Source: a virus. Taken from it: a DNA stretch of 64,000 nucleotides. This document shows, piece after piece, positions 2 to 62,266 of this stretch (positions are counted from its first letter, which is position 1; each line of letters opens with the position of its first letter). The position numbers were made by a program, and so were the translations under genes. Where the stretch lies: IMG/VR virus record IMGVR_UViG_3300035188_001379, positions 1 to 64,000 of that record; one strand, written 5' to 3'. Under the pieces are notes generated by a model. That model searched no databases, was not told where the DNA came from, and saw only the letters and a list, made by a program, of their open reading frames with translations.

Positions 2-1474
2 CACACGCCTCCTCCTCCTAAAGTACCGTTTATTTTTAATAAGTTCATTAGCCATCTTCAAGGAGCTGGAGTAAATGTAGTGCAGCAAGGATCTAAATTT
101 CACATAAAGCCTCAAACAGATAAAGACATTGTCGCACTCTCTCACGGCGAAATTAAAGAGCCTCTCAGCTACAAACTAAAGAAGGATAACCTTATCCCAG
201 AAGACGGAGGCCTGTTTGATCCTACAGTAGTAGGTATCCACGGTGATCAGTATAACCACATAGCTTTACATCATAGAATTCCGAATCCTATGTCTGAGGA
301 GCCCCTCAGAAAGCTGCTGAAGATGACCAAGGCCTCCTATGATGAAGCTGTCTCTTCTGGAGAGCTCGAAAAGAAACTCAAGTCTATCAATATAGACTCA
401 AAAATTGAGGAGCTTAAAAAGTTTATCGCTTCTCAACGCAAGTCAGGCAGAGACGATGCAGTAAAAGCTTTAAGTTTTTTGACCATGTTAAAATCTAATG
501 GGCTTACTCTAGATGACATGCTGTTGTCTAAAGTTCCTGTTATTCCTGCGCAGTACAGACCAGTTATGGCTCAAGGTGATCAGGTGCTTACCGCAGACAT
601 CAACGAACTGTATAAAGACCTCATGTTGGTCAACAGGTCTCTTGGGGAAGCTAAAGATCTTGAAGATGTCGACCCCGCACATATTCAAGCAGCTAAACGA
701 CAGATATACAATGGAGTAAAAGCTGTGTACGGACTTGGGGAGCCTATTCAGCAAAAGAGTGTAGAAAAAAGCTATAAAGGATTGCTCGCATCTGCTCTCG
801 GGTTGCAAGGAGGATCTGCCAAGGAAAGTATGTTTCAGGCAAAAGTTGTCAACAAGCCTATCGACCTTGTTGGTCGCGCTGTACTGCTGCCTGACTCTAA
901 CTTGGAGCTAAATCAATCCAGCATTCCTCAAAGCGTAGCATGGAGTATTTTCTCTCCTTTTGTCATCCGTAGACTTGTGAGACAAGGTGTACCAGCAACA
1001 AAAGCTAGAGAGTATTTGGATAACAAGCATCCACTAGCCTTGGCTGCTCTCCACGAAGAAATGGCAGATCGCCCAGGCATCGTTACAAGAGATCCTCAAC
1101 TCTCGAAATACAACTTTCAAGGGATGTATCTAAAAATGAACCCTGATCCTAAGGATTTCAGTATAAAACTAAATCCCCTGGTGTTTAAAGGTTATGGCGG
1201 AGACAGCGACGGAGACCAGTTAAACGTGCAGTTACCTGCCTCAGAAGAAGCCAAAGAAGAGGTTAAAGAAAAGCTACTTCCTGAAAAAAATCTAATATAT
1301 CATCGGACATTTAGCCCGATATACACCCCTTCTAATGAAGCAGCCACAGGCTTGTTTGCAGCCTCCTTTGAAGACAAAAAGAATACGCCAGTTAAGTATA
1401 ACTCTGCTGACGAAGTTGTGCGTGACTTTATTGCAGGCAAGCTCGACATTGGTGATCGCGTAGACCTACCTTAA
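2..1474 (+). CDS. RNA polymerase beta C-terminus fused to beta' N-terminal half (5'-truncated by window)
   Basis: The frame is open from nt 2. HTPPPPKVPFIFNKFISHLQGAGVNV resembles the RpoB C-terminus (P.VPESF.VL..EL.SLG..V). RpoC-like motifs follow: SHGEIKEP, EDGGLFD, NHIAL, TADINELY, KPIDLVGRAVL, TRDPQLSK and catalytic GGDSDGDQ (cf. NADFDGDQ). Confidence 0.9.
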   Translation, partial: HTPPPPKVPFIFNKFISHLQGAGVNVVQQGSKFHIKPQTDKDIVALSHGEIKEPLSYKLKKDNLIPEDGGLFDPTVVGIHGDQYNHIALHHRIPNPMSEEPLRKLLKMTKASYDEAVSSGELEKKLKSINIDSKIEELKKFIASQRKSGRDDAVKALSFLTMLKSNGLTLDDMLLSKVPVIPAQYRPVMAQGDQVLTADINELYKDLMLVNRSLGEAKDLEDVDPAHIQAAKRQIYNGVKAVYGLGEPIQQKSVEKSYKGLLASALGLQGGSAKESMFQAKVVNKPIDLVGRAVLLPDSNLELNQSSIPQSVAWSIFSPFVIRRLVRQGVPATKAREYLDNKHPLALAALHEEMADRPGIVTRDPQLSKYNFQGMYLKMNPDPKDFSIKLNPLVFKGYGGDSDGDQLNVQLPASEEAKEEVKEKLLPEKNLIYHRTFSPIYTPSNEAATGLFAASFEDKKNTPVKYNSADEVVRDFIAGKLDIGDRVDLP

Positions 1475-1504
1475 ATACTCTTTATTATTATATTCTTTTA
1501 AGCT

Positions 1505-1705
1505 ATGCTTGATGAACAATTATGGTTAACCTTGAGCGACGAAGATAAGATTGAGGAAATTCAAACTTGTTTAGACCAATTACTAGCAATAGACCACGGA
1601 CAACACGAATTTTACGGCTCCAACTTACAAGGACGCTTGGTAGCTGTTAAGAAAGAGCTTCAAGATAGACTTTTTAACATTATAGATATAGAAAACGCCA
1701 TATAG
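1505..1705 (+). CDS. small acidic hypothetical protein
   Basis: 66-aa ORF, co-oriented and tightly packed; no motif recognised. Confidence 0.55.
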   Translation: MLDEQLWLTLSDEDKIEEIQTCLDQLLAIDHGQHEFYGSNLQGRLVAVKKELQDRLFNIIDIENAI

Positions 1706-1706
1706 T

Positions 1707-2582
1707 ATGAAAATCGCTGAATTACTTGAAAACTACCGAAACTTAGACAAAGGAGCAAAGCCTGCGAAGTTTAAAGCAGCTTCACAGAAGATTGCTTTTG
1801 TCCCTAATCCAGAAATAGCCGCACAGCAACAGCAGCAACAGGCCGCCGCGCAGCAACCCGCCCCTCCTCAAGGAGCCCCTCAGCAGCAACAGATGCCTCC
1901 CCAACAACCGATGCCACCACAAGGCGCTCCTCCCGATCAGCAGGCAATGCCTCCTCAAGGCCCTCCACAGCAACCAATGCCACCACAAGGAGGCGCACCT
2001 CAACAACAGCAGATGTCCCCTCTTCTGCAAGAGCTCATGATGGCTGTACAGCAGCTACCACCTGAAATACAACAGCAAGTAATGCCGTTAATTCAGCAAA
2101 TCATGAGCATGCCACCAGAGCAGAGCGAGCAATACCTACAGTCCCTACTTCAACAGATGACAGCTATCCAGCAAGGACAAGGGGCACCTCAGCAACCAGG
2201 AATGGAAGCACAGGCCCAAGAAATGATGCTTGGTGGAGAACTTTCTCCTGAAGCCTATGCAGAACAACCAGCGCAAGATGAAGCTTCGCAAGAGGCCGAG
2301 AATGCTGAAGCTTCGGCAATTGAAGCTAAAAACGAATTAGATAATGTTCGAGTGAGTTTGACTGTGCGCGAGCTGTTAGACTTGATAGGTAAAGGGTCAG
2401 CCACAGCTTCTTTGCTGAAAGTTAAACAATTAGCTGACTCCCATAAGCAGAAAATGGAGCAAATTAAACAAAAAACCGAAGCAGATCAAACTCAGAAAGC
2501 TCAACAGCAGGCTGATCAGCAAACCTCAATGATGGGTGGAGGCATTTATCCTTCACCTATGGATGCTGGGGCCGCCCAATAA
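1707..2582 (+). CDS. Gln/Pro-rich low-complexity protein with N-terminal K-x-A motifs; putative internal head protein
   Basis: MKIA...QKIA followed by QQQQ/PPQG/QQPMPPQ repeats and an acidic coiled-coil-like C-terminus. Confidence 0.7.
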   Translation: MKIAELLENYRNLDKGAKPAKFKAASQKIAFVPNPEIAAQQQQQQAAAQQPAPPQGAPQQQQMPPQQPMPPQGAPPDQQAMPPQGPPQQPMPPQGGAPQQQQMSPLLQELMMAVQQLPPEIQQQVMPLIQQIMSMPPEQSEQYLQSLLQQMTAIQQGQGAPQQPGMEAQAQEMMLGGELSPEAYAEQPAQDEASQEAENAEASAIEAKNELDNVRVSLTVRELLDLIGKGSATASLLKVKQLADSHKQKMEQIKQKTEADQTQKAQQQADQQTSMMGGGIYPSPMDAGAAQ

Positions 2583-2586
2583 GTGT

Positions 2587-2997
2587 ATGGGAGACTTCAC
2601 AAAACTAGCAGCCTACTTAGAGTCTTTCGATAAAGACTCTCCAGGCTATGACACGGCATGCTTCATAAAAATGAAGATCGCTCAAGATTTGCAAGACTCC
2701 TCCACCGTCAACAACGGAGATGCAGAAGAACTTGAGGACAACGACATCACCATGGCTACTCCTGAGCAGCAAGCTCAGAATAATGTCGAGGGAAAGGAAA
2801 TGGCTGGAGCTTTTGCTGAGTTTGATGTTTTGAATAAACTCAAAGAAGAGAAGGAAGAGGTACGTATGCCTGACAAAAAAGACTCTGCAGGTAACACCGG
2901 ACTAGATGTCTCCACAGAGGAAGCTTTTGGAGATAACGTACAAAACCAAAAGCAAGCTTCGCTGTATTCTGTCCTCTTGAATAGACTTAAAAAATAA
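2587..2997 (+). CDS. acidic hypothetical protein with K-x-A motifs; putative internal head protein
   Basis: ATG at 2587 is preferred over the overlapping 2536 start; contains TKLAA, MKIAQ, QKQAS; stop overlaps the next ATG. Confidence 0.65.
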   Translation: MGDFTKLAAYLESFDKDSPGYDTACFIKMKIAQDLQDSSTVNNGDAEELEDNDITMATPEQQAQNNVEGKEMAGAFAEFDVLNKLKEEKEEVRMPDKKDSAGNTGLDVSTEEAFGDNVQNQKQASLYSVLLNRLKK

Positions 2998-4847
2998 TGG
3001 CTACCACAACAGTAGGGCGGGTAGTATTGAAGTTTTTTACTCCTGCACAATTCCATCATTTAATCGAAGATGCGGTGCTCGATAAAAAAGGCATCGCCAA
3101 GCTTTTTGCGGAGCTTGCCGAAAAAGCCCCTAACGAGTATTCAAAAATTGTATCTGACCTTACTCGCGCAGGTTTCGAGATCGCTACTAGACAAGGCACT
3201 TCTCTTACTTTAAGCGATCTGGTTTCGCCTGTAGACAAGGATAAACTATGGGATGAGTTTGAAACTTTCAAAACAGCCGTAGAGGCCGGTAAAGAGCATA
3301 AATCTGTTAAAGACCATAAAATTTTTGAAAAGTACAACACGATGATGTCAAACATCGAAAAAGAGATTTTGGCTAAAGGCTTAGCCAACAATCAGTCTTT
3401 GGCCAAGATTGTACTCGCAGGGTCTAGAGGTTCTCCAGCTCAGTACAGAGGCACGATAGCTACACAGGGTGTGGTTGTTGACGCTGAAGGGAAACCTAAG
3501 ATGGATATTCCAATTAAAAGTTCTTATGCTGAAGGATTGTCTCTCCCTGAATATCTCACCACTTCATTTGGTACACGATCCGGTGAAGTTTTAAAAAAAA
3601 TCTCAGTAGCGCAAGGAGGCTATGGAAGCAAACAGTTTGCTCGAGCACTAATGCCTCTTCAAGTTGTAGAGGCTGACTGCGAAACCCTGAACGGTATAGA
3701 CGTATCCATTGAAGACAGAGAGTCCGTTGGCGCTTTTTTAGCTAAAGCTGTAGGTAGCTATAATCGCAATAACGAGGTTACTTTAAAAATGCTGAATGAT
3801 TTGCATCACAAAGGAATCAAGCAAATCAATATTAGGTCATCGATGACTTGTCAGTCGAATAAAAAGCACCACTCAGGAGGGCTTTGCCAGATGTGTGTAG
3901 GCAAGAGAGAAAAGGGTATGGCAGCCATGGATAGCTACATCGGACTCGTTGCAGGTACAGCCGTAGCAGAACCTCTCACGGAGAGCGCGATGAAAGCCCG
4001 TCACTCAGGAGGAGCGGCCACCAGTCTTGGAGGGCAGCAAGGGTTTAAATTAATTAACCAGCTTGCAAATATTCCCAAAACCTTCGTAGGCAAAGCCCCA
4101 CTAGCTCAAGAAGACGGTATTGTCACAAAGCTTACTCCAGCAGATGCAGGAGGGCATTTCATTTCCGTTAATGACGAAGAGCACTATATAGGCATGGACC
4201 AAACCCCCAAAGTGACACTCGGGGAGCGCGTAGAGCAGGGGCAGGCATTAAGCACAGGACTAGTTGATCCTCGTGAAGTGGTACAGTATCGAGGAATAGG
4301 CGACGGTAGAAAATATTACATGGAGGCCATGAAAAAAGCCTTTGATGATAGTGGCCTGCCTGTAAACAGACGAAATTTTGAGCTGATAGCCAAAGCAGCT
4401 ATCGACCACGTAAAAATTACCGATCCTGAAGGCATAGGAAACTACCTACCTGACCAGGTAGTAAGTTATTCAGCTATTGAAAAAGATTATCAGCCCAGGG
4501 CATCTGCTAAGATGATGCGCACTGATCTAGCTTATGGAAAATACTTAGAAGAGCCTAAGCTGCATTATTCCATTGGAACTAAAGTAACCTCGGCGGTAAT
4601 AAAACATTTAAAAGAACATGAAGTGGAGGCTGTGCTAGTACATGAGCAGCACCCCAAATTCGAGCCTGTAATGGTGCGTCTTGTAGATGTACCTGAACAC
4701 CACGACGACTGGATGCATGTATTAAATAGTACTAACCTAGCCAAAAGGTTTGTTAATATGGTAAATAAAGGAGCTACGTCTGACACGCAAGGCTCTAGCC
4801 CTATACCAGGCCTTGCTTATGGCGTTGGCTTTGGTAAAAAGGATTAA
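2997..4847 (+). CDS. RNA polymerase beta' C-terminal half
   Basis: TTVGR, GSRGSPAQ, SSYAEGLSLPEYL..SFGTRSG (bridge-helix region), Zn-site Cys (EADC, MTC, CQMC), trigger loop AEPLTESAMKARHSGG, VNRRNFELI. Confidence 0.93.
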   Translation: MATTTVGRVVLKFFTPAQFHHLIEDAVLDKKGIAKLFAELAEKAPNEYSKIVSDLTRAGFEIATRQGTSLTLSDLVSPVDKDKLWDEFETFKTAVEAGKEHKSVKDHKIFEKYNTMMSNIEKEILAKGLANNQSLAKIVLAGSRGSPAQYRGTIATQGVVVDAEGKPKMDIPIKSSYAEGLSLPEYLTTSFGTRSGEVLKKISVAQGGYGSKQFARALMPLQVVEADCETLNGIDVSIEDRESVGAFLAKAVGSYNRNNEVTLKMLNDLHHKGIKQINIRSSMTCQSNKKHHSGGLCQMCVGKREKGMAAMDSYIGLVAGTAVAEPLTESAMKARHSGGAATSLGGQQGFKLINQLANIPKTFVGKAPLAQEDGIVTKLTPADAGGHFISVNDEEHYIGMDQTPKVTLGERVEQGQALSTGLVDPREVVQYRGIGDGRKYYMEAMKKAFDDSGLPVNRRNFELIAKAAIDHVKITDPEGIGNYLPDQVVSYSAIEKDYQPRASAKMMRTDLAYGKYLEEPKLHYSIGTKVTSAVIKHLKEHEVEAVLVHEQHPKFEPVMVRLVDVPEHHDDWMHVLNSTNLAKRFVNMVNKGATSDTQGSSPIPGLAYGVGFGKKD

Positions 4848-4919: not shown

Positions 4920-7166
4920 ATGCGCAACTCTACTTTACCGAAATACGCCGCAGACGACCAGATCGAGGGAGCTTTTTTTCAATTAGCCTATCAGAGGCTG
5001 CAAGATACCCTTAAAAACCTCATCCCATATTTGGTCGGGTTTGAGATTGTTAAAAAGAATGAAGACAACACCAAGGCTTTAGGTGTCTTCGGTTTTCGCT
5101 CTCAGTCAGGACAAATTTTGTTTGTTCCTGCATTTTTTATTAACGGCAAGGTAAAGAATCTTGATCTTCTGTATAGCAAGAACAACGAGCAGTTCTACCC
5201 GCTGAATGAAGACTTCGCTGAGATGTTCATTAAAGATGAGCTCTTAGGCTTAGGAGAAAACTCAAAGCAGCAAAGAGCTGATATTATGCGCGACGCCACT
5301 CAAGGCGACTACCGCCAAATGAGTGTTCCTCCTCGTACAGGACGCTACGCGATTGCTTCAGTTATAGACTACGTAAAAGATGGAGATAACTTAACAAAGC
5401 AGGCATTCACTAATTTGATTGAGGAAAATGCAGACTTTTGTGAGTCTGTCCTTCGTTTTTATCCTATAGAAAAAGTGGCGGAAGCTATTAAGCTCGAGGA
5501 TGGCGACAAGTACCGCAAAGGCGATAAAGGGGCTAAAAAAATTGACTTAGTTAAAGTCGTTAAGCCTACAGATAAAGATGAAGTAAAGAAACTTACCGAT
5601 CACGATAAGCAAACGCTGCTCACCCAAGGTTACGTTATTGTTGATGACCGCGAGGAAGGACAAAAGTCTTCTTACGGAGCTGTGGACTATATCAAGAAGT
5701 TCACCAATCCTACCGAATCCGGCTTCTACTCTTACATCACAAAGCTTGGAGGCTTACGCTACGGCTTGCTAATCGTGCGTCCTAAGCAGCTGCAGCAAGA
5801 CTTCGCTACGGATGATACACTTGTAATTGATTTGGACAGTAAAGAGGGAAACACTTACGTACGCGACCATAAGCAGGTCTTTATTAAAGATCAGATCAGA
5901 GTACAAGACTACTCAATCGTACACAAGATGATGGTTGACCCGGCAGAAGCCCGCCCAGGATATTCTAATGTTTATATTCTGATTAATGAGAATCTTAAGG
6001 CTACGCAACCCTTCCGGATTAATGCTAATTTTAAAGATGCCTCAGGTATTCGTCGTATTAGCGTAGAGCCTTGCACAGAGTATTGCGGGTGTGATTCCTA
6101 TCGTTCTGGTCCAAAAGATCGTCCAGGAAGCATTCATGATCTGCCTCGCGGCAATTTCTATGAACACCCTAAAAAATTGAGCGAGATCATGCTTGTCATG
6201 ACCAAGAAGCAAGGAGACCGCTTTGAGTACAAAGACAAATCTCTCTATGTCCCAGGCGGGTTTAAACTGCTCAAAATCAATCCTACAAAGCAGCATTTTG
6301 GAGAAACTTGGTATCCTTCTGACGGGTTATCTAAAAAAGATAAGGAAGACCAAGACAAGCGCAAGAGAGACCAGGAAGCAGAGAAAGAAAAGTACTTGAG
6401 AGGAGAACCAGGCTCTCCAAGCACTCTTCACGGTATTTTACGCGACAAGAATATTCTGCCGATGAATGTGCATACAAACGGCAGCGAATATTTTGTAGAT
6501 ATCAACGGAGCTAAAAAGAAGTACGATGACCCTCTCCAAGCAAAGATCGCTATGGTTGTTGACTTGGGGCTAGACCAGAAGGTTGCCTCAGAGCTGCTCG
6601 ACTCTTTGGTTCCGGGTTTTACAAAGAAAGGCCATATCAAACTAGCGTACACCGGAGACATCTATCCCCAGCCTTTTGAAGAGCAGCCCTATGTTAATGA
6701 GTTCGGTCAAAATACCTATGTTGGGGTAGGGCAGGAAAACACGCTACCTACTATGGATAGCTACACAGGCAATCCTACAAGACAAGACCTAGGGACCATG
6801 CCAGAGATCAAGGGGGTTGATCCTAAGTATGTGCAACAAGCGATTGAGTTGGCTCAGAACGGGCAAAAAGAAATCTTTGATACTCATATGATCGGAGCAT
6901 TGGCTAAGTACGTGGGTGTTGGGGATAAAATTGCCGAATACCTTCCTTCGCTAGTCGAATCCATGGACCGTCTCGGGCGTATTTTGTTTTTGCTTCACTG
7001 GGAAACAGATAAATTCAAGGAAATGTATGGTCGTGGAGACCTGCCTGCTTTAGTAGAGCTTGTCACTAACGTGTTTAAAAATACCGGAGACCTGGTTATC
7101 TTCTTGAAGAGGAAGTCGCCAGAGTTATCCATCAACATGACAAAGGCAGATAACTTAGATTTATAA
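4920..7166 (+). CDS. large head-associated or virion protein, function unknown
   Basis: 748-aa ORF opening the head module; PKYAA near the N-terminus and IKLAY before the C-terminal domain. Confidence 0.6.
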   Translation: MRNSTLPKYAADDQIEGAFFQLAYQRLQDTLKNLIPYLVGFEIVKKNEDNTKALGVFGFRSQSGQILFVPAFFINGKVKNLDLLYSKNNEQFYPLNEDFAEMFIKDELLGLGENSKQQRADIMRDATQGDYRQMSVPPRTGRYAIASVIDYVKDGDNLTKQAFTNLIEENADFCESVLRFYPIEKVAEAIKLEDGDKYRKGDKGAKKIDLVKVVKPTDKDEVKKLTDHDKQTLLTQGYVIVDDREEGQKSSYGAVDYIKKFTNPTESGFYSYITKLGGLRYGLLIVRPKQLQQDFATDDTLVIDLDSKEGNTYVRDHKQVFIKDQIRVQDYSIVHKMMVDPAEARPGYSNVYILINENLKATQPFRINANFKDASGIRRISVEPCTEYCGCDSYRSGPKDRPGSIHDLPRGNFYEHPKKLSEIMLVMTKKQGDRFEYKDKSLYVPGGFKLLKINPTKQHFGETWYPSDGLSKKDKEDQDKRKRDQEAEKEKYLRGEPGSPSTLHGILRDKNILPMNVHTNGSEYFVDINGAKKKYDDPLQAKIAMVVDLGLDQKVASELLDSLVPGFTKKGHIKLAYTGDIYPQPFEEQPYVNEFGQNTYVGVGQENTLPTMDSYTGNPTRQDLGTMPEIKGVDPKYVQQAIELAQNGQKEIFDTHMIGALAKYVGVGDKIAEYLPSLVESMDRLGRILFLLHWETDKFKEMYGRGDLPALVELVTNVFKNTGDLVIFLKRKSPELSINMTKADNLDL

Positions 7167-14076: not shown

Positions 14077-15525
14077 ATGTATAGAGGACTCATTAAATTT
14101 AGTGCTACCGATGACTGGCGTTGGGATGTTGACCCTGTGCAATTGATACACAACGTAAACACGTTGACCAAAGCTGGAGCAGACAACACAGAACTACGCA
14201 CTGAAAAAACAGCAGGACAAACAGACGCTCTCGTTATTGCTCTGGGCGCTTATGAAGGGACAGGAGCAAATCGGAATGGGGATATCTTTAAAGAGGCAGA
14301 ATGTCTCAAGAACTATAAGACATTTGTTAAGTCTGGAAGCAAAGGTAAAGATGGCAAGTACGACGGGCGCGCTTTAAACAGGCATCATAAAAATAAACCG
14401 GAAGACCCTAAGTACGGTAATATTAAAGCAGCTACTTACAATAATAAGATGAAGCGTATCGAGCTGATTATAGGGCTCGACAACGACAAGTGCGCAGAAG
14501 AAATCCAGAAATTGGCTGAAGGAAAGCAGATTAATGTAAGTATGGCAGCTAAGGTAGCCTACGATAAATGCACGTGGTGTGGACATGAGGCAAAAGACGA
14601 CAACCACCGTTGCGAACACATACCTAAAAAACTAGGAGAGATTAACAAGCAAGGTGAGATGTGTAGTATGGAAAATATGAACCCTCGCTGGTTCGAATTA
14701 TCTATTGTAGGCAGACCTGCCGATCGGATAGGTATGTCCCTCAAGCTCGCCTCTGATAACGCTTACATCAAAACAGCTAGCGACTATAAAACACTATATC
14801 CCGGCTTTGTTGCGCCAGAAGATACTCAGGAGTATATCTCGATATCTAAGTATGCTCAGGAAAAACGTAGATTGCTTAAGAAGCTTTCTGCTATGGAAAA
14901 GCATATCGAAGCAATCGCTGAAGCAGGCCCTAAGAACTCAAAAGAAAAGTACATTTCCGAGCAGAAATCAAAAATCAGTCATGGTGACGATATTTCTGAC
15001 GATACTTTAGAAGAGCTCAGGAAGTTTGAACCATCAAAGCTGCTCAGAGCCTTAGCTGATGAAGGGATTGTTTTTTCTCCTAAAGATTTTGTAAAATATC
15101 TTTTCGGTACGAAAAACATCTCAAATTCTGAGGACATGTTCAGTAAGATTAAAAAGCAGCTTCCTTCTATGTTTTCAGACCTAGAAGAAGATGGAGATGA
15201 CGTTGTAAATGATGAGAAGTATGAGCCGTCTGGGTCCGATATTATGCCTAAAGGTATCTTGAATATGGTGAGAGGACTGTTTGACGATCATTCTCTTTTT
15301 GATAAACCTGTGCACGGCAGGATTATGAAAATAACCATAATCAAAAAAATGCCTTCCTCTAAGCTGAGCCGCAAATCAGAGAATGAAGGCCACACGAAGG
15401 AAGCCTCGATATCTGAGCTAACAAGACAATACGCAGCGTATAAATTAGCTGCTTTTAGATATTTAGATAGTAAAGATAAACTAGACGAAGACACCATGTA
15501 CAATATTCTATTGCAAAATAGATAA
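14077..15525 (+). CDS. prohead (capsid maturation) serine protease with a Cys/His insert and C-terminal extension
   Basis: NRNGDIF, RHH (candidate catalytic His), INVSM (candidate catalytic Ser), FELSIVGRPAD (cf. ELSxVxxPA in HK97-type proteases), CTWC...RCEH; lies upstream of scaffold and MCP. Confidence 0.8.
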   Translation: MYRGLIKFSATDDWRWDVDPVQLIHNVNTLTKAGADNTELRTEKTAGQTDALVIALGAYEGTGANRNGDIFKEAECLKNYKTFVKSGSKGKDGKYDGRALNRHHKNKPEDPKYGNIKAATYNNKMKRIELIIGLDNDKCAEEIQKLAEGKQINVSMAAKVAYDKCTWCGHEAKDDNHRCEHIPKKLGEINKQGEMCSMENMNPRWFELSIVGRPADRIGMSLKLASDNAYIKTASDYKTLYPGFVAPEDTQEYISISKYAQEKRRLLKKLSAMEKHIEAIAEAGPKNSKEKYISEQKSKISHGDDISDDTLEELRKFEPSKLLRALADEGIVFSPKDFVKYLFGTKNISNSEDMFSKIKKQLPSMFSDLEEDGDDVVNDEKYEPSGSDIMPKGILNMVRGLFDDHSLFDKPVHGRIMKITIIKKMPSSKLSRKSENEGHTKEASISELTRQYAAYKLAAFRYLDSKDKLDEDTMYNILLQNR

Positions 15526-18933: not shown

Positions 18934-18959
18934 CCTTAACCTGAGAAATAACAATTAAT

Positions 18960-19937
18960 ATGGAAAAAATCGCAAATCAGAGAGTATTTAACGACACGTT
19001 CGTTGAAATGGTTAAGGCTGGCGAAGAAAAGAAGGCCGCTGTCAGCGCACAGTCTTTTACCCGCAATAAGCTTCGTGAAGAAAGCTTCACAGAAAAGATT
19101 ATCACCCCTATCGACATCAGCAATGATGACCTCGACAAGGCTGAAAATCCTGAGCTGCTGGTTAAGTGGAACGATCGTGAGCCTGATACAGCCCCAGCTG
19201 TAACAATTCCTCTCGGCGTTGTGCCTGATATGTACCAGTTTGCTGGAACTCGTTATCCTTCTTACTTCACACGTATCACGTCTCCGAAGTACAACAAGGA
19301 CATCGACAACCTCCGCGGTTATGACTACGACATCCGTGCGATCATGCTCGAGTTGTCCACAAAGGATATCGCCACTGAGATCGACTCGCGCTTCATGGCT
19401 CGCGTTGATAGCATCATTGGCCCTGTCAACCAGGGGAACGTCCTCAATGGAACAGGTACGACTGTCCTCAGCGCGCTGCCGCAGAACGTTACAATCGCAG
19501 GAGGCATCACCCGTGAAAACGTGGCGGAAGCTTTCAAGGTGATTAAGCGTCTCCGTGTTCCATTTGGTCCCTCTCAGCCTGATGGCGGAGAAACCAAGGG
19601 AGTCATGTTGATGAACAATGTCACTGCTGACGACTTCGTCAAGATGAGCCGCTCTGAAGTTGGTGGTGACCTTGCGCAGGATATGTTTGTGAACGGTCTC
19701 CCTTCCAAGACCCTCTTGGGAGTCAAGCCGATCTATACCATCAAGCGTGATCTCGTCCCTGACGGTGTTATCTACCTGTTCTCTTCCGAAGAATTCTTCG
19801 GCAAGTACTACAGACTGCAGCCTCTCACAGTGTTCATGAAGAACGAGGCGTACTTCCTTGAGTACTTCCAGTACATGAACCTCTCGCTCGCGATTGGTAA
19901 CGTGAAGGGTGTTGTCAAGGTTGACTTCAACGGCTAA
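18960..19937 (+). CDS. major capsid protein (HK97-fold, putative)
   Basis: 325 aa; follows protease, scaffold and decoration genes; codon bias typical of high expression; strong terminator after it; starts MEKIA. Confidence 0.85.
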   Translation: MEKIANQRVFNDTFVEMVKAGEEKKAAVSAQSFTRNKLREESFTEKIITPIDISNDDLDKAENPELLVKWNDREPDTAPAVTIPLGVVPDMYQFAGTRYPSYFTRITSPKYNKDIDNLRGYDYDIRAIMLELSTKDIATEIDSRFMARVDSIIGPVNQGNVLNGTGTTVLSALPQNVTIAGGITRENVAEAFKVIKRLRVPFGPSQPDGGETKGVMLMNNVTADDFVKMSRSEVGGDLAQDMFVNGLPSKTLLGVKPIYTIKRDLVPDGVIYLFSSEEFFGKYYRLQPLTVFMKNEAYFLEYFQYMNLSLAIGNVKGVVKVDFNG

Positions 19938-48353: not shown

Positions 48354-48390
48354 GTTTCATATATTGGGCTAGCGACACTTTTTAATTAAT

Positions 48391-49428
48391 ATGATCCTTA
48401 CACTAGATTTTAATAATAAGAATCAGTATAGGCGCTATCCTTTTAAACAGCATAGTGTATTGACCTCAACTACAGGGGATACACTTGCAGACGACATGAT
48501 AGTCAACTGTTCGGTGACTACTGTGTACGGACAGCACAGAGTGTATGTTAGCCAAATTTTTAAAAGTAAAAACACTGTGCGAATTTCTATAGCCTCTGTT
48601 TTTGATGACTCGCTACTCGGTGTTTTTGCTGGTACACTTAGTGGAGATTACACAACGCTAGATTTGACAGCCAGTGACAATTATTTGTCAGGCTCTCTGA
48701 CCCTAGGTCCAGTTAAAGCCTGGGAGCAAGCGCCACGAATATCTTTTTTTAACCCTGCGGCCACTGAGTTGGAAGAGTCCACACTATTTTGCTACGAAGC
48801 CCCAAAAGTAACATCTATTCTAGATAAAAAGCAACAGTCCCTTAGAGGTGTGGTACCCTACGGAGTACTTACAAATATTGAAAAGTACACAAATACAGGA
48901 CTTAAGCAGACCAATTTTGAGTCTACTGCACCGGCCTCTGTAACTACAATCGCAGACAAGTCATCTTTCTTAAACAACTGCGCTACACCAGTAATTAAAA
49001 ACATCAACGGAGTATTCCCGTTCCCTAAAGACGTCATACCTGACGAAAATGATGGTAACATATACCTCGTAGGCGTGCTGCCGATCACTTTCTACGGCAT
49101 TTCTATAACGGAAGGTGTGGTGAATACAGTCACAGAAGATATCACTATCGACAGTTTGTGTAGTTTGAAGAGTAAACTACTTCCCCCTATAAATATTTCT
49201 GGATTTACTTTAGATACTGAAGAGTTCAGAGACAAGTACTATAGTAAGCCGGCGTTTACTACTGCGCGCCCAAATGGCGTACCTCCACACTACAATGAGT
49301 ATATTCCAAAAAGGCTCGCAGCTAACTTTAACGTAACCACCCTACCAGAGTATTATTACTGGCCGCAGTTTGTGCAGCCTGATTACTACAGTCTCTGGTT
49401 CAACTACTCAGCGAATGTCATCATATAA
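48391..49428 (+). CDS. tail appendage paralog 3
   Basis: DFNNKNQYRRYPF, IKNINGV...PDENDGNIYL. Confidence 0.6.
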   Translation: MILTLDFNNKNQYRRYPFKQHSVLTSTTGDTLADDMIVNCSVTTVYGQHRVYVSQIFKSKNTVRISIASVFDDSLLGVFAGTLSGDYTTLDLTASDNYLSGSLTLGPVKAWEQAPRISFFNPAATELEESTLFCYEAPKVTSILDKKQQSLRGVVPYGVLTNIEKYTNTGLKQTNFESTAPASVTTIADKSSFLNNCATPVIKNINGVFPFPKDVIPDENDGNIYLVGVLPITFYGISITEGVVNTVTEDITIDSLCSLKSKLLPPINISGFTLDTEEFRDKYYSKPAFTTARPNGVPPHYNEYIPKRLAANFNVTTLPEYYYWPQFVQPDYYSLWFNYSANVII

Positions 49429-61234: not shown

Positions 61235-61261
61235 ACCAACAACCAACCAAAATAAATTAAT

Positions 61262-62266
61262 ATGTCTGACAATAACTACAAAATCACTGACACCCTTCAA
61301 AAGTACTATGACAAGGTTTTTGAAGACGGGAAACTCATGAGTGTTCACATCGGTATGTGGGGTATGGCTGCTAACCTCGTCGAGGAGGATATCAAGCTTA
61401 CCTCTAAACTTCCAGATACTCACAAGCTTGGTAAGAAAATGCTCATCAAGCCTGAGGTGTACAACAGGTTCAAAACAATGGATCAGAAAATCAGGAAGAC
61501 TCTGGAAAAGTCTTCATTCGACTTCCCATTGGCCAAGGCCAACTTCGTACCCAAGTCTAAATATCTTGAGGTGTACACCAAGCTCAACGGTCTGCGTGAT
61601 GAGTATATGCAGATGGTTGAAGAATTCGTAGAAAAATACGAAGACTACAAGAAGGAGGCCATGGACTATTACGAGGAGCACAAAGACACAATCAAGGTAG
61701 AGGATTTAGAAGCCTATTACCCTGCCGCAAACAAAATTCGTAGTAAGTTTTATTGCGACATTGTGTCTTTTGAGGTAAAGATGCCGAAAGAATTCAGTGA
61801 GATCAACCTGCAGGATGAAATTACGCGTGAGCAGATCAACACAGCTGCTCGCGAGAGTGCAGCAGTCAGATACAAAGAAGAGTTCTCGAAGCAGGTTGAT
61901 ATCCATACAGAAAAGCTCAGAAGCTTCATGGAGGAAGCCACCTCTGAACTTCGTACTCGTGTGGCAGAGCACTTCACGGTAGCCCTCGCAAAGATCAACA
62001 AGAGCGAGGTAGTTACTGACAACAGTATTCGTAGAATGTACGAGCAGATTAACGAGTTTCGTGCAGCTAATTTTGCTAACGATACCGCAGTAGAAACTCA
62101 GTTGAACGAGCTTGAGAAGCTGCTAGGAGGAACTAAAGATTTCTCTAAAGATAAAGAGGCTATGAGTGTACTAAAACAGCATCTTGCTAACGTTGTGGAA
62201 GAAGCTAGGAACACTTCAGATGTGTCAGGCGTCAGCGGCCGGTATTTCCGTAATCTTGACGTATAA
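61262..62266 (+). CDS. DUF3150-like coiled-coil protein
   Basis: FVPKSKY..VY.KL..LRDEY..MVEEFVEKY...YP....IRSKF pattern next to the Ycf46-like ATPase. Confidence 0.55.
   Translation: MSDNNYKITDTLQKYYDKVFEDGKLMSVHIGMWGMAANLVEEDIKLTSKLPDTHKLGKKMLIKPEVYNRFKTMDQKIRKTLEKSSFDFPLAKANFVPKSKYLEVYTKLNGLRDEYMQMVEEFVEKYEDYKKEAMDYYEEHKDTIKVEDLEAYYPAANKIRSKFYCDIVSFEVKMPKEFSEINLQDEITREQINTAARESAAVRYKEEFSKQVDIHTEKLRSFMEEATSELRTRVAEHFTVALAKINKSEVVTDNSIRRMYEQINEFRAANFANDTAVETQLNELEKLLGGTKDFSKDKEAMSVLKQHLANVVEEARNTSDVSGVSGRYFRNLDV

Follow-up and report, generated by a model that had tools for sequence, protein, structure and literature searches.

A phage genome encodes a probable four-chain RNA polymerase core in which half of beta is joined to the front of beta'

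We analysed a stretch of phage DNA of 64,000 nucleotides (nt), positions 1 to 64,000 of the IMG/VR record IMGVR_UViG_3300035188_001379 (hereafter the window; positions on the complete 184,465-base record are given as contig positions), which opens with genes for a multisubunit RNA polymerase. The phage probably encodes a single two-barrel multisubunit RNA polymerase core of four chains, which we infer to be made late and packaged. Two short proteins carry N-terminal parts of beta (betaN1 and betaN2), a chain of 998 amino acids (aa) combines the C-terminal half of beta with the N-terminal part of beta', and a separate chain carries the C-terminal part of beta' (beta'C). A preliminary description of the window, made from the letters alone, had proposed a two-chain enzyme consisting of a beta-beta'N fusion and beta'C.

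Frame 2 of the window was open from nt 2 to a stop codon at 1472-1474, and the GTG at position 80 was an internal codon, as the preliminary description had already read it. Bases 1-207 recurred at contig 184259-184465 with 206/207 identity; the record is a circular or permuted assembly cut inside the fused gene. The frame was open at nt 2 because the record begins inside the gene and its ends are repeated. No stop or separate start lay just upstream of nt 2: followed leftward across the record join, the frame ran for 508 further codons to an ATG at contig 182736, giving 998 codons in total with the Pfam domain Rpb2_6 in frame. The fused gene was preceded by a conserved 107-aa gene on the same strand, and the genes beyond that were oppositely transcribed. 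An intact 998-aa product was present in the protein collection (P0007, from a 184,387-base contig), and in relatives the fused gene lay whole within contig interiors with its neighbours unchanged. With the first 5 kb as query, megablast gave no match in the phage collection.

Rpb2_6 covered residues 98-460 of the fused chain (E 1e-44), and residues 29-551 aligned with residues 635-1176 of the 1250-residue bacterial beta chain 8i23_C (E 4e-41); against E. coli beta, the chain corresponded to residues 666-908 and 1048-1337 of 1342. The first residues encoded in the window (HTPPPPKVPFIFNKFISHLQGAGVNV) aligned with the extreme C-terminus of beta (8i23_C 1127-1160 of 1250; E. coli beta up to 1337 of 1342), and after a linker of ~10-15 residues the same chain continued as E. 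coli beta' 30-63 and 160-511. Rpb1_1 and Rpb1_2 scored above their Pfam cut-offs in the part of the chain within the window, Rpb1_1, Rpb1_2 and Rpb1_5 did so over the polymerase chains, and bacterial beta and beta' chains in the PDB were matched at E 1e-35 to 1e-41. Because beta and then beta' alignments follow one another along one chain, the 998-aa protein is a C-terminal half of beta joined head-to-tail to an N-terminal part of beta'. The C-terminus of RpoB therefore does run straight into the N-terminal motifs of RpoC, as described earlier, and the fusion is genuine and conserved; what did not hold is that it includes all of beta, since the chain starts at E. coli beta 666.

The fused chain lacked the first ~25 residues of beta' and the beta' zinc-finger loop, and contained no cysteine. 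Both double-psi beta-barrels lay on it, which places the whole catalytic centre there. In 14 homologues with 52-100% identity, residues D322, K323, K331 and G332 of the beta barrel, residues D909, D911 and D913 of the beta' barrel and residues F541, P545 and D548 of the linker were invariant; the three beta' aspartates form the metal-binding DxDxD triad within the motif DSDGD (residues 909-913). The AlphaFold2 model of the fused chain, built with 14 sequences, had a mean predicted local distance difference test (pLDDT) score of 58 and a predicted template modelling (pTM) score of 0.34; so poor a model counts against our reading as far as the fold of the linker is concerned. That the fusion, or the ORF running across the record ends, is an assembly artefact has a negligible probability. 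The record is cut inside the gene and its 207-base end repeat carries one mismatch, as an artefact might, but products of ~997 aa form more than 120 clusters at 90% identity, from contigs as long as 293 kb, the fused gene is present at 21 IMG/VR loci, mostly in contig interiors and with the same neighbours, and the linker residues named above are invariant.

The beta'C gene corresponded to E. coli beta' 572-939 and 1177-1286, and its alignment with Thermus and E. coli beta' spanned the bridge helix, the trigger loop and the second zinc site (Cys228, Cys285, Cys297 and Cys300). The SI3 insert of E. coli was absent, and the last ~120 residues had no match. The fused chain ended in GKLDIGDRVDLP, at about E. 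coli beta' 550, and beta' homology resumed 1.5 kb downstream, in the separate gene beginning MATTTVGR that the preliminary description had pointed out; the break thus falls in a surface hairpin immediately preceding TTVGR (E. coli 572-576). Residue 22 of beta'C aligned to residue 9 of cyanobacterial RpoC2 (8syi_Z) and residue 4 to E. coli beta' 572. From these shared coordinates, and hence indirectly, the cyanobacterial break was placed after TTVGR and ~12 residues later than the phage break, which precedes the motif by two residues, in agreement with the cyanobacterial split as given in the preliminary description. The split beta' of cyanobacteria and plastids (RpoC1/gamma and RpoC2) is interrupted in the same surface region past the catalytic barrel, and phiKZ-type phages, like cyanobacteria, have beta' split in this post-barrel loop (PMC7598289). 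Judged by alignment, the phage break appears to lie in the same loop as the cyanobacterial and phiKZ-type split, at a different bond, and the earlier term "unusual chain boundary" was an overstatement.

The missing half of beta was recovered with the help of two cultured phages, Arash of Salmonella (OQ632216, 180.8 kb) and D69 of Vibrio (186.7 kb), in which the fused homologue is one chain of 1525 aa (gp206) and 1527 aa (D69_0261), respectively, followed by separate downstream beta'C genes of 606 aa (gp216) and 609 aa (D69_0264). In tblastn searches, residues 36-222 of Arash gp206 matched the 220-aa ORF betaN1 on the minus strand, and residues 231-469 matched an ORF at contig 169612-170340 on the plus strand, betaN2. 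In one relative a stop codon stood just before a conserved betaN2 ATG, so the start of betaN2 here is placed at ~169648, giving ~230 aa. Within betaN2, the Pfam domain Rpb2_3 matched above its cut-off at contig 170026-170205 on the plus strand. A betaN1 profile matched bacterial beta 84-200 (E 5e-9) and a betaN2 profile matched bacterial beta 371-576 (E 3e-8), with only beta chains above chance in either case; E. coli beta 78-156 and 403-573 fall in betaN1 and betaN2, respectively. BetaN1 matches the N-terminal part of beta and the fork region is in betaN2, the protrusion, lobe and fork modules being spread over these two genes, 7 and 13 kb upstream of the fused gene. D69_0261 contains the three beta-bearing pieces colinearly (residues 12-222, 217-462 and 480-1515), as does Arash gp206; the splitting of beta appears to have cost little or no sequence.

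An enzyme of two chains, in which beta'C is separate and an entire beta continues into the N-terminal part of beta', is real in Arash (gp206/gp216) and D69 (D69_0261/0264) and is the majority form among metagenomic relatives. For the present genome it is very improbable and was rejected: the ORF starts with the ATG at contig 182736, directly after the same-strand 107-aa gene and then oppositely oriented genes, its first aligned residue is E. coli beta 666, and the N-terminal half of beta is encoded elsewhere by two conserved genes. BetaN1, betaN2, the fused chain and beta'C therefore amount to four chains from three transcription units on both strands, which replaces the two-chain count given at first.

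The order betaN2 (plus), betaN1 (minus), fused gene (plus), small genes and beta'C (plus) was kept in 5/5 relatives searched whole, in which betaN1 and betaN2 were ~40-84% identical and the two large chains ~47-82%. It is hardly probable that betaN1 and betaN2 are decaying leftovers and that the working enzyme is the fused chain and beta'C only. Both are short, displaced and on different strands, and minimal two-barrel polymerases such as YonO function without these lobes (PMC7824862); on the other hand, both were intact short ORFs in 6/6 genomes at 40-84% identity, with at least 47 invariant positions each, including the fork-loop motif, and the same segments are kept in frame in single-chain relatives.

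Rpb2_6, Rpb1_2 and Rpb1_5 each had one match in the genome, and no paralogue that might belong to a second polymerase set was found there by phmmer. Genome searches for alpha, omega, sigma-70 regions 2 and 4, a homologue of the Arash sigma factor gp196 and a T7-type polymerase were all negative, the last with an uninformative control. The four chains would form a complex active in RNA synthesis, assembling into a crab claw like that of beta/beta' with the outer modules docked non-covalently. The covalent link from beta to beta' would probably do the assembly job of the bacterial alpha dimer, a role suggested by the absence of alpha. A helical hairpin at residues 704-750 of the fused chain, in the poor AlphaFold model, lies inside the stretch that aligned to beta' 160-511 and includes the clamp helices, a position that makes it possible that the enzyme could use a sigma-like initiation factor of phage or host origin.

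The enzyme would be a late product that enters the capsid, travels with the DNA and starts transcription in the next host. We lean, with limited confidence, towards packaging in the virion because the structural operon begins with the two largest polymerase genes and virions of Arash are rich in the homologous chains. The polymerase genes were syntenic with gp218-like, protease-like and capsid genes, and the plus-strand block that the two large polymerase genes open continued through these, which bears out the earlier placing of the polymerase genes at the front of the head operon. In the Arash virion proteome, gp206 had the most spectra of any protein (3516, with 100% coverage), and gp216 had 1210 compared to 1333 for the capsid protein (PMC10585845).

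Several observations weigh against packaging or are neutral. The Arash authors warn that abundant enzymes may contaminate a virion preparation, and theirs also held ribonucleotide reductases, a kinase and a primase (PMC10585845). Seven proteins of the present phage, mostly encoded among head or putative cargo genes, carried a helical tag of ~30 residues; the hidden Markov model of this head tag found no copy in the four polymerase genes, in which K-x-A motifs were neither enriched nor depleted. BetaN1 and betaN2 are located near deoxycytidine monophosphate (dCMP) deaminase and ribonucleotide reductase genes, outside the structural operon, so their timing may differ from that of the operon. Extended -10 sites (TGnTATAAT, often TTTGGTATAATAT) occurred 10 times on the plus strand versus ~5.4 expected, about twofold, and lay 38-91 nt upstream of several genes, with some sites upstream of tRNA genes; they hint at transcription through a sigma-70-type factor, and host polymerase could on that ground start the infection. 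The four-chain enzyme would then be unpackaged and made after infection for middle and late genes, with host polymerase reading early sigma-70-type promoters. These promoter sites, the untagged polymerase genes, the position of betaN1 and betaN2 among nucleotide-metabolism genes and the caveat of the Arash authors all fit such a scheme, which we regard as possible but doubtful: the Arash fused chain out-scores the capsid protein in virion spectra, the two large genes head the structural operon here and the polymerase genes of Arash and D69 lie between portal and capsid genes, and the extended -10 sites exceed expectation merely ~twofold.

Scans for sigma-70 promoters and terminators around the operon remained at chance level, and a k-mer search of upstream regions found no promoter common to the polymerase genes, upstream of which no Shine-Dalgarno sequence was visible. 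The k-mer search did yield an AT-rich box, AAATTAAT or (A)AATTAAT, which about eight genes, the capsid gene among them, have 7-12 nt ahead of the start codon; (A)AATTAAT was present in 14 upstream regions versus 1.5 expected. This box may be a translation signal for a host that makes little use of Shine-Dalgarno sequences.

Searching 1.84 billion representatives clustered at 50% identity yielded 1421 matches at E 1e-30 or better, cellular subunits included. All of the best 150 of these had E < 1e-168, and in most of them the query began at residue 450-500 of a protein of 1410-1500 aa, that is, a whole-beta fusion. This form, whole beta with the N-terminal part of beta' (~1450-1530 aa), is the commoner one, with well over 100 clusters at 50% identity; by our own count, ~12 of the best 150 matches began at the C-terminal half of beta, as here. 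A betaN2-based search for longer proteins found a 556-aa protein in which betaN1 and betaN2 are joined. Many longer matches were split into 2-4 stretches, with breaks at query positions ~465-483, 595, 775-781 and 914-916, and whole-fusion relatives, often of 1800-2900 aa, likewise matched in 2-4 stretches; the recurrence of these breaks fits inteins. In P0135, the 573-aa betaN2 of a close relative, a LAGLIDADG-type intein interrupted the fork-loop motif KMGxGGIG. The polymerase genes of the fused family look like intein hot spots. Given the varied splits, joins and inteins among the relatives, chain boundaries in the family appear fluid and the link from beta to beta' constant, and the present clade is the most fragmented form seen, with four chains and a scrambled gene order; this four-chain form is probably derived.

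Among the IMG/VR relatives, one locus of 52% identity (L021:9965-14513) had the catalytic motif of the fused gene divided over two ORFs. The first ended with YGAD, 13 further residues and a stop codon; the second began 31 nt later in another frame and encoded an intein splicing domain and a LAGLIDADG endonuclease, the intein part ending in ...KN followed by SDGDQLNV. This layout was present in four IMG/VR records (L021, L022, L025 and L027) and may represent either a disabled gene or a naturally split intein whose N-fragment is very short. The beta'C of the same locus (L021:16843-19182, 779 aa) was interrupted in frame, at the trigger-loop motif, by a Hint-domain mini-intein of ~140 aa; the motif corresponds to residues 334-338 of beta'C in the window. 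In two other loci an extra gene lay directly 3' of the fused gene (L023:13020-14465, 481 aa; L019:12939-14597, 552 aa). Both products had a DUF7487 domain, with a Vsr-like endonuclease in addition in L019 and a weak Mom-like match in L023, and the extra gene looks like a free-standing mobile endonuclease.

Fusions of RpoB and RpoC in Helicobacter and Wolbachia comprise two whole subunits in one frame, C-terminus to N-terminus; the join in the present phage involves only half of beta and ~40% of beta'. Arash and D69 share with the present phage the junction between the beta C-terminus and the beta' N-terminus, a separate beta'C starting at the same place, genomes of ~181-187 kb and gp218-like, protease-like and capsid genes in the same order, at 31% identity over 99% of the fused chain. 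They differ in that all of beta is in the fused chain, the first ~470 residues of which correspond to two displaced genes here, and sigma factors are annotated in Arash, one being present in virions, whereas none was found in this genome. The Arash paper names gp206 "beta" and gp216 "beta-prime" without mention of a fusion (PMC10585845).

Like the present enzyme, those of the phiKZ/AR9 type are multisubunit and two-barrelled, lack alpha, omega and sigma, and have beta' split after the barrel; their beta is split in two or three chains, and one set is packaged in the virion (PMC7598289, PMC7824862). They differ by having two sets, virion and non-virion, compared to one here, and no beta-to-beta' fusion has been described in them. 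Two unannotated PHROG families of whole-length beta and beta' were matched at E 1e-36 to 1e-42, and families annotated as phage RNA polymerase beta subunit more weakly, at E 1e-9 to 1e-17; judged by its sequence, the enzyme is far closer to bacterial sequences than to the phiKZ type. The mReC phages likewise are uncultured and tailed, and their beta and beta' align with the bacterial counterparts. They are defined by the motif NADxDGD and by separate matches to beta and beta', each 800 aa or longer (PMC7481178), whereas the chains found here measure 220, ~230, 998 (fused) and 616 aa and the motif reads GGDSDGD; the capsid protein here had no Pfam match, whereas T4-type capsid references (PF07068) appear in the mReC supplement (PMC7481178). 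Reviews of phage multisubunit polymerases list only the phiKZ/AR9 type, in which subunits are split but never fused, alongside the crAss and YonO types with their single chains. Across PMC7598289, PMC7824862, PMC13282480 (2026) and PMC7481178, split subunits are described, and fusions only for crAss-type single chains; no description of a fused bacterial-like phage form was found in the open-access literature.

The coordinates of the polymerase genes, their neighbours in the head block and the upstream motifs are given in Table 1. The three genes between the fused gene and beta'C were tightly packed, their position was kept within the clade, and none had a family match. The 291-aa and 136-aa proteins had Atlas models with pLDDT ~0.45, suggesting disorder, and Atlas searches with these two gave no usable lead. 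The 291-aa protein is possibly a processed head protein; the earlier "head-cargo" label of the three genes rests only on the K-x-A cluster in its N-terminus. The capsid protein had three K-x-A motifs in its first 27 residues, and such N-terminal clusters fit processing at Lys-x-Ala. The three small genes were also considered as polymerase subunits common to the whole family, a role that was rejected because D69 has unrelated small genes at that place. For the head-module genes nearby, scans against PHROG and Pfam gave almost no matches. Adjoining betaN1, a 238-aa ORF on the minus strand (contig 174490-175206; L003:8491-9207) encoded four ALTTAQ repeats (PF20080, E 2e-16); it overlaps a 243-aa ORF on the opposite strand, and either could be the gene.

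Table 1. Positions of the polymerase genes, adjacent head-block genes and upstream motifs (window positions unless marked contig)
Feature	Position	Strand	Remarks
betaN1	contig 175348-176010	-	220 aa, N-terminal part of beta
betaN2	contig ~169648-170340	+	~230 aa, fork region
Fused chain, whole	contig 182736 to window 1474, across record ends	+	998 aa
Fused beta C-half/beta' N-part gene, last 490 codons	1-1474	+	starts at contig 182736, spans record ends; encodes beta C-terminus, linker, beta' N-terminal region without zinc-finger loop, clamp helices, DSDGD
66-aa gene	1505-1705	+	position kept in relatives down to ~30-38% identity
291-aa Gln/Pro-rich protein	1707-2582	+	predicted disordered; five K-x-A motifs in first 30 residues
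136-aa acidic protein	2587-2997	+	ATG at 2587 preferred over GTG at 2536; stop overlaps beta'C start (TAATG)
beta'C	2997-4847	+	616 aa, C-terminal part of beta'; starts MATTTVGR
748-aa Arash gp218 homologue	4920-7166	+	gp218 detected in virions and encoded near the Arash beta'C gene
Prohead-protease-like gene	14077-15525	+	Arash gp222 homologue
Major capsid protein gene	18960-19937	+	Arash gp226 homologue
Extended -10 sites	52028, 52109; contig 111856, 122156, 123617, 125560; others		motif scan
(A)AATTAAT boxes	18950-18962, 48381-48393, 61252-61264; others genome-wide		

Tentatively, the fused type could mark a very large and seldom-cultured lineage of tailed phages in which both barrels always sit on one chain, the link replaces the alpha dimer, the enzyme is the capsid-borne sole transcriptase and the chain boundaries are reshuffled by inteins and homing endonucleases. 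The type comprises more than 100 clusters at 50% identity and has at least two cultured hosts, Salmonella and Vibrio. For annotation, the labels "beta subunit" and "hypothetical protein" stand on fused genes in these phages, and screens that demand separate long beta and beta' genes overlook the entire group. The fused type is a natural experiment on which covalent links a multisubunit polymerase needs, with the barrels kept together and the lobes separable; it bears on how a two-barrel enzyme assembles without alpha and omega and recognizes promoters without a recognisable sigma, and since Arash can be grown on a laboratory strain of Salmonella, the questions of assembly and promoter recognition are directly testable.

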